A stretch of DNA of 8,773 nt from a virus (lineage: Duplodnaviria; Heunggongvirae; Uroviricota; Caudoviricetes): the IMG/VR virus record IMGVR_UViG_2671180433_000013, one strand, 5' to 3'. The notes below the pieces were generated by a model, which was given only the letters and a program-made list of their open reading frames with translations, did no database searches and was not told where the DNA came from. The translations under genes and the position numbers were made by a program. Shown here in pieces: positions 1 through 7,810 of this stretch (positions are counted from its first letter, which is position 1; each line of letters opens with the position of its first letter).

Positions 1-1429
1 AGTACGGCTGAGGCGGGTTCGGTGATCACCCAGTTCAGCCAGGCGCTGGCACAGGGTGTGTTGCGCGGTGAGGAATTTAATTCGGTCAATGAAAGCGGAG
101 ACCGGATCATTCGTGCACTGGCTGCGGGTATGGGCGTGGCCCGTAAAGACCTTAAGGCGATGGCGGACGACGGCAAACTGACGGCGGATAAAGTCGTTCC
201 TGCGTTAATCAGCCAGCTGGGGACATTGCGTGATGAATATGCCGCCATGCCGGAAACGGTTTCCAGTAGTATCACGAAGGTGGAAAACGCCTTTATGGCC
301 TGGGTGGGCGGTGCGAATGAGGCCAGCGGGGTGACGAAAACGCTCTCCGGTGCGCTGAACGGTGTTGCCGGCAATATTGATAATGTGGCCGCGGCAGCAG
401 GTGTGCTGGTTGCTGTCGGGGTTGCACGCTACTTTGGCAATATGGCCTCCGGAGCGATGTCTGCCACGGCAGGACTTGTGACGGCTGCACGTAATGAAGT
501 TGCACTGGCGGAAGCACAGTTCAGGGGAACGCAGATTGCCACGGCGCGGGCAAGGGCAGCCGTGTACCGTGCTCAGCAGGCCGTGGCGGCAGCCCGCGGG
601 ACGGAGATGCAGATTGCAGCAGAGGCCCGTCTGGCGGCCACACAGGAACGCCTGAACAGAAATATTGCTGCCAGAAGCGCCGCCCAGAATGCGCTGAACA
701 GTACAACGGCGGTGGGCTCACGTCTGATGAGCGGTGCGCTGGGACTGGTTGGAGGCGTACCCGGACTGGTGATGCTGGGAGCTGCCGCATGGTACACGCT
801 GTACCAGAATCAGGAACAGGCCAGGGAGTCTGCGCGCCAGTATGCACTGACGATAGATGAAATCGCGCATAAAACGCCATCAATGTCTCTGCCTGAAGCC
901 TCAGATAACGAAGGGCGAACACGGGAGGCGCTGACAGAGCAAAACCGGCTGATTGATGAGCAGGCCAGCCGGGTGAAATCCCTGCAGGAAAAAATCGCCG
1001 GGTATCAGTATGTGCTGGCGAACCCGGGCTGGACGACCGGTGACGGATTCATGATAAACCATCTGACCTCGGTGAAGACCGTAACGGAAGGGCTTGCTCA
1101 GGCAACAGAGCAGCTTGCCGTTGAGCAGTCCCGTCTGGCACAGATGCAGGAAAAAGCGCAGTCCATTCAGGATGTGCTTGCCGGGCTGGAAGACCGTCGT
1201 GTGGCGTTAATTCGTCAGCAGGCGGCAGAGCAGAATAAGGCGTACCAGTCCATGCTGGTTATGAACGGTCAGCATACGGAATTCAACCGTCTGCTGGGGC
1301 TGGGTAATGAACTGCTTCAGCAGCGGCAGGGACTGGTGAATGTGCCGTTACGGCTGCCACAGGCCACTCTGGATGATAAACAGCAGAGTGCCCTGACAAA
1401 AACAGAGCGTGAGCTGGCCCTGTCCAGAC
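1..1429 (+). CDS. H: Tail tape-measure protein, internal fragment (copy A); open from the window edge and ending at a single N at 1430
   Basis: Frame 1 is open from base 1 (the track's GTG at 22 is not a real start). The translation is near-identical to the copy at 1556..2984 and continues the same protein family as the gpH-like C-terminus at 3421..4736. The frame breaks at N (1430) and reads SRXFFG-stop through the junction. Confidence 0.6.
1..1429 (+). repeat. Repeat copy 1 of the tape-measure segment (window-truncated at its 5' end)
   Basis: 1..1429 aligns base-for-base with 1556..2984 (offset 1555) apart from scattered and clustered substitutions. It ends at the same ...CTGTCCAGAC breakpoint. 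Confidence 0.9.
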
Positions 1430-1441
1430 NCTTTTTCGGAT

Positions 1442-2984
1442 AATGCGGCCCTGTTTGCCCGTTCGGCTGCCTCGATGCGTGAATATGGTTACAGTGCTGA
1501 TGATGTGCTGAAGGTGACGGAGGCCATTTCCACGGGGCTGAAAATCTCCGGTGCCAGTACGGCTGAGGCGGGTTCGGTGATCACCCAGTTCAGCCAGGCG
1601 CTGGCACAGGGTGTGTTGCGCGGTGAGGAATTTAATTCGGTCAATGAAAGTGGTGACCGGATCATTCGTGCACTGGCTGCAGGCATGGGCGTGGCCCGTA
1701 AAGATCTGAAGGCGATGGCGGACGACGGCAAACTGACGGCGGATAAAGTCGTGCCCGCGTTAATCAGCCAGCTGGGGACATTGCGTGATGAATATGCCGC
1801 CATGCCAGAAACGGTCTCTGACGGGATCACAAAGGTGGAAAACGCCTTTATGGCCTGGGTGGGTGGTGCGAATGAGGCCAGCGGGGTGACGAAAACGCTC
1901 TCCGGCGTGCTGAACGGTGTTGCCGGACAGATTGATAATGTGGCAACAGCCGTGGGGGCACTGGTTGCCGTCGGGGTTGCCCGGTACTTTGGCAATATGG
2001 CCTCCGGAGCGATGTCTGCCACGGCAGGACTTGTGACGGCTGCACGTAATGAAGTTGCACTGGCGGAAGCACAGTTCAGGGGAACGCAGATTGCCACGGC
2101 GCGGGCAAGAGCAGCCGTGTACCGTGCTCAGCAGGCCATGGCGGCAGCCCGCGGGACGGAGATGCAGATTGCAGCAGAGGCCCGTCTGGCGGCCACACAG
2201 GAACGCCTGAACAGAAATATTGCTGCCAGAAGCGCCGCCCAGAATGCGCTGAACAGTACAACGGCGGTGGGCTCACGTCTGATGAGCGGTGCGCTGGGAC
2301 TGGTTGGAGGCGTACCCGGACTGGTGATGCTGGGGGCTGCAGCATGGTACACGCTGTACCAGAATCAGGAGCAGGCCAGGGAGTCTGCGCGCCAGTATGC
2401 ACTGACGATAGATGAAATCGCGCATAAAACGCCGTCAATGTCTTTGCCTGAAGCCTCAGATAATGAAGGACGAACACGGGCGGCGCTGACAGAGCAGAAC
2501 CGGCTGATTGATGAACAGGCCAGTCGGGTGAAATCCCTGCAGGAAAAAATCGCAGGATATCAGTATGTTCTGGCGAACCCGGGCTGGACGACCGGTGACG
2601 GATTCATGATAAACCATCTGACCTCGGTGAAGACCGTAACGGAAGGGCTTGCTCAGGCAACAGAGCAGCTTGCCGTTGAGCAGTCCCGTCTGGCACAGAT
2701 GCAGGAAAAAGCGCAGTCCATTCAGGATGTGCTTGCCGGGCTGGAAGACCGTCGTGTGGCGTTAATTCGTCAGCAGGCGGCAGAGCAGAATAAGGCGTAC
2801 CAGTCCATGCTGGTTATGAACGGTCAGCATACGGAATTCAACCGTCTGCTGGGGCTGGGTAATGAACTGCTTCAGCAGCGGCAGGGACTGGTGAATGTGC
2901 CGTTACGGCTGCCACAGGCCACTCTGGATGATAAACAGCAGAGTGCCCTGACAAAAACAGAGCGTGAGCTGGCCCTGTCCAGAC
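1442..2984 (+). CDS. H: Tail tape-measure protein, internal fragment (copy B), running into a 21-N gap
   Basis: Frame 2 ORF reads [49 protein letters not shown]..., then repeats the copy-A sequence with a few substitutions. It ends at ...TERELALSR directly before the N run at 2985..3005. No start codon is needed because it is an internal fragment. Confidence 0.6.
1556..2984 (+). repeat. Repeat copy 2 of the tape-measure segment
   Basis: Direct repeat of 1..1429. It is preceded by 125 bp (1431..1555) of tape-measure sequence that copy 1 lacks only because the window starts there. Confidence 0.9.
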
Positions 2985-3005
2985 NNNNNNNNNNNNNNNN
3001 NNNNN
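2985..3005. other. Run of 21 N (scaffold or assembly gap); a single N also sits at 1430
   Basis: Literal n characters in the sequence, both placed exactly at the repeat-unit breakpoint after ...CCAGAC. Confidence 0.95.
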
Positions 3006-3420
3006 CTGGCGAACCCGGGCTGGACGACCGGTGACGGATTCATGATAAACCATCTGACCTCGGTGAAGACCGTAACGGAAGGGCTTGCTCAGGCAACAGA
3101 GCAGCTTGCCGTTGAGCAGTCCCGTCTGGCACAGATGCAGGAAAAAGCGCAGTCCATTCAGGATGTGCTTGCCGGGCTGGAAGACCGTCGTGTGGCGTTA
3201 ATTCGTCAGCAGGCGGCAGAGCAGAATAAGGTGTACCAGTCCATGCTGGTTATGAATGGTCAGCATACGGAATTCAACCGTCTGCTGGGGCTGGGTAATG
3301 AACTGCTTCAGCAGCGGCAGGGACTGGTGAATGTGCCGTTACGGCTGCCACAGGCCACTCTGGATGATAAACAGCAGAGTGCCCTGACAAAAACAGAGCG
3401 TGAGCTGGCCCTGTCCAGAC
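3006..3420 (+). repeat. Partial repeat copy 3 (last 415 bp of the unit) immediately after the N gap
   Basis: 3006..3420 matches 2570..2984 and 1015..1429. It differs by an A-to-V substitution (KAYQSM to KVYQSM). Unique sequence follows from 3421. Confidence 0.9.
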
Positions 3421-4736
3421 TGAAAGGGGAGGAAAAAGAGCGTGCCCGGCTGGGGTATGCGGCGGATGACCTTGGTTTTGTGGGGGATTCGTATCAGGAG
3501 GCGAGACAGCGTTATATCAGTAATGCTCTGGAAGCCTGGCGTAATAACGAGGCGAACAAACCTAAATCCCGGGGTGGAAAATCAGAGACGGAAAAAGCGG
3601 AAGACAGTTTTTCCCGGCTACTGAAGCAGCAGAAAGAGCAACTGGCACTGGCGGGTCAGAATACAGAGCTGGCGAAGCTGAAGTACCAGACTGCGCAGGG
3701 CGAACTGAAAACCCTGACGGAGATGCAGAAGCAGGAACTGCTGCGTAACGCGACCCTGATTGACCAGCAAAAAATCCGGGAACAGTTGCGATCCCGGGAA
3801 GAGACCCTGAAGAATGATAATGTGGCTGCGCGTGCATCAAATGAAGCCGAACTGCTGGGGTACGGGCAGGGAGAACGAGCCAGGGAACGCATGCGGGAGT
3901 TGCAGCAGATCCGCGACAGCTTCCGCCAGAAGGATGCGGACCTTCAGTCTCAGTATCAGACCGGGGATATCAGTGAGGATTTTTACAGACAGGCACGGGC
4001 ACAGAACGCGCAGTATCTGAGCGAACGCCTTAAGGACCAGGCAGCCTTTTATGCCGAATCGGATGTGCAGCGTGCGGACTGGCAGAAAGGGCTGCAGGAG
4101 GGGTTCAGTAACTGGGTGGATAATGCGTCCGATTACGCCTCACAGGCAGCACAGCTTGCGACGGAGGGTATCTCAGGGATGGTGAATAACATCACGGAGA
4201 TGCTGAACGGGAATAAAGTGGAATGGCGCAACTGGGCCTCATCAGTGCTGCAGGAAATATCAAAAGTTCTTATGAATGCCGCGATTGTCAACGGGATCAA
4301 GACGGCGGCAAACAGTATGTCCGGTGCAGGAGGATTTATTGGCAGCATTGGTGACTGGCTGGGCGGTGCGGTGGCCAATGCAAAAGGCGGCGTGTATACC
4401 TCGGCAAACCTGAGCGCGTACAGCAACAGTATTGTGGATACGCCCACGTACTTTGCCTTTGCAAAAGGGGCCGGGCTGATGGGGGAAGCAGGACCTGAAG
4501 CCATAATGCCCCTGACCCGGGCGGCGGATGGCTCGCTGGGGGTGCGAGCGGTGGGCAGTATGAACGGTAGTGCGGGCCTGGTGTATTCCCCGGTCTACCA
4601 TATCGCCATTCAGAATGACGGGACTAATGGCCAGATAGGGCCGGAGGCGGCAGGCAGCCTTGCGCAACTGATTGACCAGCGGGTGCAGGCGGTGATGCTG
4701 TCCATGCGACGTGACGGAGGAATACTGAGTGGCTGA
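3006..4736 (+). CDS. H: Tail tape-measure protein, C-terminal portion (lambda gpH-like); stop TGA at 4734..4736
   Basis: Frame 0 ORF. The first 415 nt repeat the end of copies A and B, then unique sequence follows (SRLKGEEKERARLGY...). There is a long charged, coiled-coil-like stretch and a C-terminus with NDGTNGQIGP and RDGGILSG, recalling the lambda gpH C-terminus (NDGTNGQIGP...RDGG). Position immediately upstream of M/L/K/I fits. Confidence 0.8.
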   Translation: MANPGWTTGDGFMINHLTSVKTVTEGLAQATEQLAVEQSRLAQMQEKAQSIQDVLAGLEDRRVALIRQQAAEQNKVYQSMLVMNGQHTEFNRLLGLGNELLQQRQGLVNVPLRLPQATLDDKQQSALTKTERELALSRLKGEEKERARLGYAADDLGFVGDSYQEARQRYISNALEAWRNNEANKPKSRGGKSETEKAEDSFSRLLKQQKEQLALAGQNTELAKLKYQTAQGELKTLTEMQKQELLRNATLIDQQKIREQLRSREETLKNDNVAARASNEAELLGYGQGERARERMRELQQIRDSFRQKDADLQSQYQTGDISEDFYRQARAQNAQYLSERLKDQAAFYAESDVQRADWQKGLQEGFSNWVDNASDYASQAAQLATEGISGMVNNITEMLNGNKVEWRNWASSVLQEISKVLMNAAIVNGIKTAANSMSGAGGFIGSIGDWLGGAVANAKGGVYTSANLSAYSNSIVDTPTYFAFAKGAGLMGEAGPEAIMPLTRAADGSLGVRAVGSMNGSAGLVYSPVYHIAIQNDGTNGQIGPEAAGSLAQLIDQRVQAVMLSMRRDGGILSG

Positions 4737-5070
4737 GATAAAAACGCTGCATCTGGTCCCGCGTGAAGGGATGCAGGTGAGTGAGAAGCCGTCGGTGGTG
4801 AGGGTGCGGTTTGGTGACGGTTATGAACAGCGCCGCCCCACAGGGCTGAATCCTCAACTGAAGACGTTTCAGGCGGTGTTCCGGGTGACGGATGAGTCAA
4901 CCCGGCGCTGGCTGGAAGAGTTTTTATCGTGGCATGGTGGTTACCGTGCCTTTTTGTGGCGACCGCCGAAACATAACCGGACGGTGAGGGTTGTGTGCCG
5001 TGAGTGGAGTGTCACGGATAATGCCCGGTACAGTGATTTCAGTTGCACGATAGAGCAGGTGGTGAACTGA
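4729..5070 (+). CDS. M: Minor tail protein M (lambda gpM homologue), 113 aa, GTG start
   Basis: Translation MAEIKTLHLVPREGMQVSEKPSVVRVRFGDGYEQRRPTGLN...IEQVVN aligns with lambda gpM (..VRKVRFGDGY..., C-terminal ..EQVVN). GGAGG at 4716..4720 lies 8 nt upstream of GTG 4729. The start overlaps the tape-measure stop (GTGGCTGA). Confidence 0.85.
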   Translation: MAEIKTLHLVPREGMQVSEKPSVVRVRFGDGYEQRRPTGLNPQLKTFQAVFRVTDESTRRWLEEFLSWHGGYRAFLWRPPKHNRTVRVVCREWSVTDNARYSDFSCTIEQVVN

Positions 5071-5768
5071 TGCAGGATATTCACGAAGAAAGCCTGAACG
5101 AGTCGGTTAAGTCAGAGCAGTCACCGCGGGTGGTACTCTGGGAAATCGACCTGACGGTACAGGGTGGTGAGCGGTATTTTTTCTGTAATGAGCTGAATGA
5201 AAAAGGGGAGCCGGTCACCTGGCAGGGGCGGCAATATCAGGCATACCCGATTGACGGCAGCGGTTTTGAGATGAGCGGGAAGGGCAGCAGTGCCCGCCCG
5301 TCGCTGACGGTGTCCAATCTGTTTGGTCTGGTCACCGGAATGGCGGAGGATTTGCAGAGCCTGGTGGGGGCCACGGTGGTCCGCCGCCGGGTGTATGCCC
5401 GTTTTCTGGATGCGGTGAATTTTGTGGCGGGCAATCCGGAAGCGGACCCGGAGCAGGAGCTGAGCGACCGCTGGGTGGTGGAGCAGATGTCAGAGCTGAC
5501 GGCCATGACAGCCTCGTTTGTGCTGGCCACACCGACCGAGACGGACGGGGCGCTGTTTCCCGGTCGCATCATGCTGGCGAACACCTGTATGTGGGATTAC
5601 CGGGGAGATGAATGCGGGTATAACGGTCCTGCGGTGGCGGATGAGTTCGATAAACCCACCACCGATATCCGTAAGGACAGATGCAGCAAGTGCATGCGCG
5701 GGTGTGAGATGCGCGGCATGGTGGCTAATTTTGGCGGTTTCCTTTCCATTAACAAACTTTCGCAGTAA
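5070..5768 (+). CDS. L: Minor tail protein L (lambda gpL homologue), 232 aa
   Basis: Starting at ATG 5070 gives MQDIHEESLNESVKSEQSPRVVLWEIDLT...GGFLSINKLSQ, collinear with lambda gpL (MQDI...VVLWEIDLT...FLSINKLSQ). It has the C-terminal Cys cluster (ECGYNGP...CSKCMRGC). The start overlaps the M stop (TGATG). The track ORF from 5043 is an upstream in-frame extension. Confidence 0.88.
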   Translation: MQDIHEESLNESVKSEQSPRVVLWEIDLTVQGGERYFFCNELNEKGEPVTWQGRQYQAYPIDGSGFEMSGKGSSARPSLTVSNLFGLVTGMAEDLQSLVGATVVRRRVYARFLDAVNFVAGNPEADPEQELSDRWVVEQMSELTAMTASFVLATPTETDGALFPGRIMLANTCMWDYRGDECGYNGPAVADEFDKPTTDIRKDRCSKCMRGCEMRGMVANFGGFLSINKLSQ

Positions 5769-5773
5769 ATCCA

Positions 5774-6517
5774 ATGACACAGACAGAATCAGCGATTCTG
5801 GCGCATGCCCGGCGGTGTGTGCCTGCGGAGTCGTGCGGCTTCGTGGTGAGAACGCCGGAGGGGGAGCGGTATATCCCTTGTGTGAATATCTCTGCAGAGC
5901 CGGAGGCGTATTTTCGTATTGCACCGGAAGACTGGCTGCGGGCAGAGATGCAGGGGGAGATTGTGGCACTGGTCCACAGTCATCCCGGTGGTCTGCCCTG
6001 GCTGAGCGAGGCCGACCGGCGGCTGCAGATAAAAAGTGCACTGTCCTGGTGGCTGGTCTGCCGGGGGGAAATTCATAAATTCCGCTGTGTGCCACATCTG
6101 ACAGGACGGCGCTTTGAGCACGGGGTGACGGACTGTTACACGCTGTTCCGGGATGCCTGCCATCTGGCGGGAATTGATATGCCGGATTTTGAGCGTGAGG
6201 ATGACTGGTGGCGCAACGGTCAGAACCTGTACCTGGACAATATGGAGGCGACTGGTTTTTACAGGATTTCCCTGCCTTCCGCACAGCCTGGCGATATCCT
6301 GCTGTGCTGCTTTGGTGCTTCGGTACCGAACCATGCCGCCATATACTGCGGCAACGGTGAGCTGCTTCACCATCTGCCTGAACAACTGAGTAAACGGGAG
6401 AGGTATTCTGAAAAATGGCAACGACGAACGCATTCTGTCTGGCGTCACCGCCACTGGCACGCATCTGCCTTCACGGGGATTTACAACGATTTGGCCGCCG
6501 CCTCAGCCTGTATGTGA
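5774..6517 (+). CDS. K: Tail assembly protein K (lambda gpK homologue) with JAMM/MPN and NlpC/P60 motifs, 247 aa
   Basis: MTQTESAILAHARRC...; JAMM-type motif HSHPGGLPWLSEAD (HxH-x7-S-x2-D); NlpC/P60-type catalytic Cys (GVTDCYTLF) and His (PNHAAIYCG). ATG at 5774 is 5 nt after the L stop. The 3' end overlaps I by 103 nt. Confidence 0.85.
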   Translation: MTQTESAILAHARRCVPAESCGFVVRTPEGERYIPCVNISAEPEAYFRIAPEDWLRAEMQGEIVALVHSHPGGLPWLSEADRRLQIKSALSWWLVCRGEIHKFRCVPHLTGRRFEHGVTDCYTLFRDACHLAGIDMPDFEREDDWWRNGQNLYLDNMEATGFYRISLPSAQPGDILLCCFGASVPNHAAIYCGNGELLHHLPEQLSKRERYSEKWQRRTHSVWRHRHWHASAFTGIYNDLAAASACM

Positions 6518-7095
6518 ACACGGCAGCGGAAGCCATTCGCGCCCTGTCGATGCAGATGCCGGGCTTTCGCCGTCAGATGAACGAAGGCTGGTACCAGATA
6601 CGTATTGCCGGTGATGACACGGCACCGGAGGCGGTGTATGCCCGTCTTCACGAACAGCTGGGTGAGGGAACGGTCATCCACATTGTGCCGCGACTGGCCG
6701 GGGCCGGAAAGGGTGGACTGCAGATTGTGCTGGGGGCGGCAGCCATCGTGGGCTCTTTCTTCACGGCCGGAGGCTCGATGGCGTTATGGGGTACAGCCCT
6801 GAGTGCCGGTGGTTTTTCTGCCACCACGATGCTGTTTTCACTGGGGGCCAGCATGATACTGGGCGGTGTGGCCCAGATGCTGGCCCCGAAGGCAAAAACA
6901 CCGGAGTACAAAAGCACGGATAACGGTAAACAGAACACGTACTTTTCCTCCCTGGATAACATGATTGCCCAGGGTAACCCGATGCCGGTGCCTTACGGGG
7001 AAATGCTGGTTGGCTCCCGCCGTATATCCCAGGACATCAGTACCCGTGATGAAGGCGGGGGCGGAAAGGTCGTGGTTATCGGGCGGCAGGGGTAA
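6415..7095 (+). CDS. I: Tail assembly protein I (lambda gpI homologue), 226 aa
   Basis: MATTNAFCLASPPLARICLHGDLQRFGRRL... matches the lambda gpI N-terminus (..ARICLYGDLQRFGRR..). Conserved hydrophobic Gly/Ala-rich segment and C-terminal ..KQNTYFSSLDNM..VVVIGR. GGAGAGG lies about 10 nt upstream of ATG 6415. Stop TAA at 7093..7095. Confidence 0.85.
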   Translation: MATTNAFCLASPPLARICLHGDLQRFGRRLSLYVNTAAEAIRALSMQMPGFRRQMNEGWYQIRIAGDDTAPEAVYARLHEQLGEGTVIHIVPRLAGAGKGGLQIVLGAAAIVGSFFTAGGSMALWGTALSAGGFSATTMLFSLGASMILGGVAQMLAPKAKTPEYKSTDNGKQNTYFSSLDNMIAQGNPMPVPYGEMLVGSRRISQDISTRDEGGGGKVVVIGRQG

Positions 7096-7134
7096 AAAGA
7101 ATAAAAAAATCCCGCAGTGTTGCGGAACTGCGGG
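7094..7134 (-). terminator. Intrinsic terminator oriented for the minus strand (3' end of the sodC transcript): 8-bp GC-rich stem plus U-tract
   Basis: Inverted repeat CCCGCAGT-gttgcgga-ACTGCGGG at 7111..7134. On the minus strand the hairpin is followed by ATTTTTTTATTCTTTTT (plus-strand A-run 7094..7110). There is no T-run after the hairpin on the plus strand. Confidence 0.6.
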
Positions 7135-7252
7135 AGCGTTACGAAGATTGAGTGTAAGGAATTATTCTTATGTCACGACAAAAACATTAACTCAGAGAGG
7201 GAGGATGTGCCGTTCTTTTCAGGGAGAAAGGATTTATCGTCCTGAGGAATAA

Positions 7253-7276
7253 AGGTAAGGGGCCCGCACCTTACCT
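7253..7276 (-). terminator. Stem-loop just 3' of the sodC stop (possible proximal terminator or stabiliser)
   Basis: Inverted repeat AGGTAAGG-ggcccgca-CCTTACCT. On the minus strand it is followed by a weak TTATT tract. Confidence 0.3.
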
Positions 7277-7282
7277 GACTGA

Positions 7283-7810
7283 TTATTGAATGATGCCGCA
7301 GGCCATTCTCGCACCACCACCGCCCAGGGGCTCCGGATGGTCATGATGGTTATCACCGCCAGCATGAAGCATGAGAGAACGCCCTTTAATCTCTTTTAAT
7401 GAGTTCAGTCTCGGGGCCAGGACCGGGTAGTTCGCTTTTCCGTCATGCGTCACGAACAGCGCAGGGAGGTCGCCCGGGTGTCCATCCGGAGACCAGGGGC
7501 CAAGATGTTTGCCGGTGTTTTTCGGGTCAAAGTGACCGCCAGCCGATAATGCTGCGACCGGTTTTCCGTCTTTCAGTGCCGGGGCGCAATTTCCTTTTTC
7601 GTGCACATGAAAACCATGAATGCCTTCAGACAGAGAGTGAAGGGCTGGTGTGAACAGCAGACCGTAGGGGGTCTCCTGAATGGTTATTTTTCCAATGCTG
7701 ACTTCTTTTCCGTCAGCACTGACAAGGTTCATTGGGACTTCCTGTTCTGCTGCGTATCCGCATGATGCTGCTGTCAGCATGGCAATGGCAGCAATGATTT
7801 TACATTTCAT
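7283..7810 (-). CDS. sodC: Periplasmic copper/zinc superoxide dismutase (SodC family), 175 aa, prophage moron
   Basis: Minus-strand ATG at 7810..7808 is preceded by GAGGG at about -6 (the track ORF extends further upstream without support). The N-terminus is signal-peptide-like ([23 protein letters not shown]). Cu,Zn-SOD signature blocks are present: [46 protein letters not shown]. Collinear with E. coli/Salmonella SodC. Stop TAA is at 7285..7283. Confidence 0.9.

Follow-up and report, generated by a model that had tools for sequence, protein, structure and literature searches.

An apparent triplication of a tape-measure gene in an E. coli draft record, probably the product of a scaffold mis-join

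The tape-measure protein gp67 of the Stx2-converting phage 1717 (YP_002274275.1; HK97-type) has 1080 aa and is encoded by a gene of 3243 nt. How does the gene studied here compare with it? We analysed a window of 8773 nt, which is the entire draft record CYBE01000084.1 (GCA_001286205.1). The tape-measure gene of this window has the same Pfam domains as gp67 and is followed by the same genes in the same order, M-L-K-I-J. The difference lies in the form in which the gene was deposited: it is present in three overlapping pieces with N's, while its first ~373 nt (125 residues) fall outside the record.

A second comparison is with phage lambda. From the work of Katsura and Hendrix on deletion and duplication mutants of gpH, the length of the gene reportedly sets the length of the tail. 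Taken at face value, the window would resemble an internal duplication of such a ruler protein. In contrast to the lambda variants, however, the joints here are N's at which the sequence restarts at differing points, the copies are allelic and the arrangement is found in no relative.

The third comparison is with short-read drafts of STEC/EPEC-type E. coli in which scaffolds are mis-joined at multi-copy prophage genes; there, too, contig ends lie in prophage and IS repeats, and N placeholders link contigs whose reference coordinates overlap. Nothing essential separates the window from these; what is specific to CYBE01000084.1 is the chain itself, from allele A to allele B to C. Judging from the sequence comparisons described below, we put at about 0.93 the probability that the triple repeat consists of three overlapping draft contigs strung together with N placeholders, and is not a real duplication.

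Layout of the blocks and joints

N's occur in exactly two runs in the window, one of length 1 (position 1430) and one of length 21 (2985-3005), and these separate three blocks. The features of the tape-measure region are as follows, with gene positions in phage 1717 coordinates:

1-1429, + strand: block A, a tape-measure allele fragment (gene nt ~499-1927) that opens the record; its 3' end is the breakpoint X, after ...CTGTCCAGAC
1430, no strand: single N, a placeholder at the scaffold joint A/B
1431-2984, + strand: block B, a tape-measure fragment (gene nt 374-1927)
1431-2569, + strand: upstream part of block B, probably the authentic 5' portion of the gene that is resumed in block C
2570-2984, + strand: tail of block B, redundant with 3006-3420
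2985-3005, no strand: run of 21 N, a placeholder for the scaffold gap B/C
3006-8773, + strand: block C, of which the first 415 nt (3006-3420) are the segment common to A, B and C
3421-4736, + strand: unique C-terminal part of the tape-measure gene, ending at the stop codon (Pfam Phage_HK97_TLTM and Tape_meas_lam_C) and collinear with the phage 1717 protein

In gene coordinates blocks A, B and C overlap one another. The homologue of the entire block A lies inside block B (1556-2984), and the segment 3006-3420 repeats both 1015-1429 and 2570-2984. With lengths of 1429 nt (96.4% identity) and 415 nt (99.5-100% identity), these repeats are far beyond chance. Nothing real is lost at 2985-3005, because 415 nt of the gene are present in both B and C.

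Are the three copies, and the two joints between them, equivalent? The initial annotation had described three copies of ~1.43 kb with a single breakpoint for all. The N joints and the common end at ...CTGTCCAGAC are as it described, but A and B differ at 51 sites and the third copy measures 415 nt. In the same way A, B and the overlapping part of C do all terminate at X, but the second and third copies restart differently: beyond X, the first joint takes the sequence back to gene nt 374 (position 1431), the second to the point matching A position 1015 (position 3006), so that the joints are not equivalent. The A-to-B joint as written runs from ...CTGTCCAGAC through the N into CTTTTTCGG. Block C alone goes on beyond X, with TGAAAGGGG..., and to this extent the earlier statement that only the third copy continues into unique C-terminal sequence was correct.

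Allelic differences and the origin of block A

What distinguishes the copies? All of the differences between A and B lie in the first 1014 nt, where they form one cluster between 96 and 429 and another between 780 and 1014; over their final 415 nt the two blocks are identical. Third codon positions account for 40 of the 51 sites, and the 44 codons affected comprise 35 synonymous and 9 non-synonymous changes. On sequence grounds, this is the pattern expected of mosaic, allelic homologues under purifying selection, and not that of a recent tandem duplication. The last A/B difference is at A position 1014, and block C starts with the very next base, the counterpart of position 1015. Block C departs from the tails of A and B at two sites, 3232 and 3257, having T,T where both A and B have C,C. 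The block boundaries sit at the points where alleles merge, as an assembly graph produces, and the comparison of A with B is consistent with lambdoid prophages that share one host and carry allelic tape-measure genes, which were broken at the branch points of such a graph.

The ends of the record were considered in the same way. Its 5' end is inside the tape-measure gene, a 1.5-kb segment of which can be present at as many as 8 places in one complete E. coli genome. Its 3' end is 100 nt into an IS66-family element, the left end of which is found in as many as 20 copies in a genome. Repeat boundaries thus coincide with the two termini of the record as well as with its two inner joints, which is typical of short-read drafts.

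How might such a record have come about? The window is one whole scaffold, taken from a draft assembly of E. coli short reads, and the isolate probably carried at least two lambdoid prophages bearing related tape-measure genes. Block A would then be the allele of the second prophage of this same isolate. Contigs would have ended at position 1015, where the two alleles become one, and after X, where they part again, giving three in all: A, the allele of the other prophage; B, the resident 5' part; and C, the 415-nt segment with the rest of the tail module. A scaffolder or gap-filler may have chained A, B and C by means of read pairs that mapped ambiguously in the common 415 nt, the 1 N and the 21 N being presumably written as gap estimates despite the overlap of the contigs in gene coordinates. 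A lone N is what some scaffolders write where a gap is unresolved or negative. What we find is what a mis-join should leave behind: the joints are gap characters, the blocks so joined overlap on the finished reference, the block ends are points of merging or divergence, A and B stop at the identical base, and the record ends in an IS. The case would illustrate that lambdoid prophages residing together can interrupt a short-read assembly at the exact points where their alleles merge. The initial annotation had invoked collapsed or ambiguous repeat contigs; the ambiguity it was right to suspect, but this would lie between paralogous prophage alleles (A against B and C) rather than in a collapse within one gene.

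From where does allele A derive? Its source could be a second prophage or a mixed culture, or several alleles may have been merged into one consensus. No exact natural copy of it was found in the complete E. coli genomes, the best being 97.4% identical over 1429 nt, and the stretch 860-1060 had no exact match in those genomes either (98.0% at best). The 3' variant combination of allele A was not found in IMG/VR. Protein databases clustered at 90% identity would not tell such alleles apart, since these are 96-99% alike. That allele A lacks an exact match in 5426 complete genomes and in IMG/VR would be in keeping with its derivation from a second strain, through mixed culture or contamination, in which case the scaffold would be an artefact still. 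We consider this derivation very improbable, since genomes with a related tape-measure gene often hold several copies (up to 8 places for the 1.5-kb segment), which makes a second prophage the simpler source, and the window has no other sign of mixture.

The gene in finished relatives and in a sister contig

If the three blocks are contigs of a mis-joined scaffold, is the gene single in its relatives? We searched 50,697 phage records with a 4800-nt query. Its three pieces collapsed onto 2934 nt in 91 phages, all of them Stx-converting or lambdoid; this length corresponds exactly to 1431-2984 plus 3421-4800. Positions 1431-2984 gave a one-piece match in ~1904 complete E. coli genomes, with block B 99.2% identical. 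Twenty IMG/VR loci were compared, two of which (L014 and L018) end before X. The 18 that reach X are, without exception, collinear through it with B and the sequence after X, in single-copy order, and 14 of these 18 have essentially no gaps along the whole 2.93 kb. Thirteen other loci that were examined contain the normal junction, CCAGAC followed directly by TGAAAGGGG, as does, at block C, the window's own record (L022).

The A-to-B joint behaves quite differently. A synthetic junction of 120 nt gave no match of at least 80% coverage in 5426 complete E. coli genomes; its two 60-mer halves, counted together, match at 6 places per genome in the median and at 13 at most. The pattern ...CCAGAC N{0,1} CTTTTTCGG... 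was absent from IMG/VR, from the GTDB representative genomes and from JGI metagenome contigs. That the window's own record is retrieved by this pattern shows that its N is matched by an N in the searched sequence. An apparent '100% coverage' of the B-to-C joint in complete genomes was rejected on inspection of its parts: each hit is made up of two parts of the normal 415-nt segment whose order is reversed.

Directly downstream of the tape-measure gene are the minor tail genes M, L, K, I and J, in an order that matches L001 and L021:

4729-5070, + strand: gene M (Pfam Phage_min_tail)
5070-5768, + strand: gene L (Pfam Phage_tail_L)
5774-6517, + strand: gene K (Pfam Prok-JAB and NLPC_P60)
6514-7095, + strand: gene I (Pfam Lambda_tail_I)
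7944-8726: gene J, a truncated ORF that reads into the IS66-family element
8674-8773, + strand: left end of the IS66-family element, which interrupts gene J (100/100 identity to L021 8894-8993)

The matching segment of L021 lies just upstream of the IS66 tnpA. M-L-K-I is the usual context 3' of a lambdoid tape-measure gene, and the tail module is otherwise ordinary and Stx-phage-like.

Patterns specific to A, to C and to the joint did not retrieve the window from IMG/VR or from the GTDB representatives; an exact-protein search with the truncated J ORF led to its record. The truncated J protein reading into the IS is encoded by four draft assemblies. Since neither the complete E. coli genomes nor IMG/VR contain the J::IS66 junction, we take these four to be close relatives. 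The junction is present in a sister contig, L023 (CYFK01000100.1; GCA_001286445.1), which is 6743 nt long and without N. This contig is continuous from B-specific sequence into C, through X into the C-terminal part, and on through M, L, K, I, sodC and J::IS. Compared with 1579-2781 of the window it has 0 mismatches, the B-specific 1579-2569 included, and at the sites equivalent to 3232 and 3257 it has T,T, as block C does. As far as sequence can tell, this directly supports a real gene in which B-specific sequence is followed by C. The T,T of the sister contig also shows that the tail of block B, with its C,C, is foreign to the allele continuing in block C.

What, then, is the true gene? The comparisons indicate that 1431-2569 + 3006-4736 is probably the best reconstruction of the fragment present here. 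The real gene is single-copy and consists of the N-terminus (~373 nt, outside the record) followed by these two segments. The initial annotation had proposed 1431-2984 + 3421-4736; this is indeed collinear with the finished relatives, but the sister contig favours 1431-2569 + 3006-4736. The joined segments give an open frame of 2870 nt, that is, 955 aa and a stop codon. Aligned with residues 126-1080 of the phage 1717 protein, 941 of the 955 residues are identical (99%), with 0 gaps, and Pfam recognizes PF20155 TMP_3 (1e-44), PF06120 Phage_HK97_TLTM (2e-90) and PF09718 Tape_meas_lam_C (6e-18) in the fragment. Our reconstruction and the earlier one are two bases and one residue apart (Ala to Val, at fragment position 455), and Val at this position is also found in phage 1717. 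The central claim of the initial annotation, a scaffolder artefact and not an in-frame duplication, is supported by the single-copy relatives, by an A-to-B joint that occurs in no collection scanned and by a sister contig that is contiguous through X.

Reading frames and the case for a tandem repeat

How much weight can the reading frames bear? As written, the ORFs are 22-1443, 1409-3034 and 2964-4736, and they do occupy frames 1, 2 and 0, the change of frame that had been offered as a signature of artefact. The argument is a weak one on its own. Block B is 1554 nt in length (3 x 518), so that A and B are in frame, without a stop codon, once the N at 1430 is dropped. Since the N's are placeholders, and A and B are in frame when the N is ignored, the frames are not decisive. 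The B-to-C joint would be in frame only if the length of the gap were 2 mod 3.

Might A and B after all be a genuine tandem duplication? The unit would be 1554 nt (518 aa), A then B, the N at 1430 would be spurious and only the B-to-C joint would be artefactual. The protein would have ~1598 aa, compared with 1080, and the tail would be roughly 50% longer than those of relatives. The two copies would have since diverged, or been patched by recombination, and a single molecule would lead from A-specific sequence through ...CCAGAC to CTTTTTCGGATAATG. The uninterrupted frame of A and B without the N speaks for such a repeat, as does the start of the sister contig, which lies inside B (at position 149 of the block and, in gene coordinates, 23 nt from the start of block A), so that the contig, taken alone, is compatible with an A-like copy upstream of B. 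We nevertheless judge a tandem repeat very improbable: the in-frame spacing is a 1-in-3 coincidence; the junction is in no finished genome, nor in IMG/VR, the GTDB representatives or the JGI metagenomes; a mosaic divergence of 3.6%, mostly synonymous, followed by 415 identical bases, points to alleles of different phages; a real junction, being unique, should have assembled through, yet the A and B contigs stop at the identical base; the tail of B has the C,C of A and not the T,T of C and the sister strain; both joints are N characters, at which the sequence is interrupted; and the unit boundaries restart at different points, gene nt 374 in one case and the equivalent of A position 1015 in the other.

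If, as we think, contigs were mis-joined, the ORFs called on the public record (22-1443, 1475-3034 and 3006-4736) would be the pieces of one gene together with a piece of a paralogue, and not real gene products. They should not be taken for variation in tape-measure length or for new proteins. The biological importance of the arrangement is little; its practical value is in the curation of CYBE01000084.1. Several IMG/VR contigs, for example L005, L006, L013, L014 and L018, end within the tape-measure gene.

Tape-measure ORFs and allele A

How does the tape-measure gene appear in the public record, CYBE01000084.1? Three ORFs are called there:

22–1443, + strand: called ORF, 473 aa
1475–3034, + strand: called ORF, 519 aa
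3006–4736, + strand: called ORF, 576 aa

All three are artefactual fragments of tape-measure genes, and as proteins of 473, 519 and 576 aa they are already present in protein databases. For allele A (window 1–1014), the tape-measure fragment of the first block, a close counterpart was found in no collection searched. Its top matches among complete E. coli genomes reached 97.4% over the block and 98.0% over 860–1060, and its 3′ variant combination was not found in IMG/VR. Allele A may be a rare allele, or a consensus of several prophage copies made by the assembler.

Gene J, its interruption and the neighbouring sodC

The region downstream of tail gene I contains:

7283–7810, − strand: sodC, prophage-borne Cu/Zn superoxide dismutase (Pfam Sod_Cu)
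7944–8773 (including the IS end), + strand: tip-attachment gene J, interrupted, cut after about 243 codons

sodC sits between tail genes I and J, on the strand opposite to both, and E. coli O111:H11 88.0502 is annotated with the same I–sodC–J arrangement. Gene J is interrupted by an IS66-family (ISEc22-like) element whose left end starts at 8674; the J ORF runs on into this element to a stop at 8726. The resulting junction protein is common to four draft assemblies (GCA_001286205.1, GCA_001286445.1, GCA_001285865.1 and GCA_001284885.1). A search of 5426 complete E. coli genomes and of the IMG/VR contigs found the junction in neither set, so adsorption is probably defective in this prophage.

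Genes L and K in the sister drafts

Against L023, the sister contig from GCA_001286445.1, the third block (3006–8773) shows 23 mismatches, of which 21 fall within 552 nt of gene L (window 5111–5663, L023 3097–3649); the other ~5200 nt hold just two. This cluster could be a recombination patch, or paralogous prophage alleles mixed in one of the two drafts. Two further sister contigs, L024 (GCA_001285865.1) and L025 (GCA_001284885.1), both break inside gene K, starting at the equivalents of window positions 6130 and 6154, at most 25 nt apart. Such close breakage in two drafts suggests another repeat boundary common to co-resident prophages.
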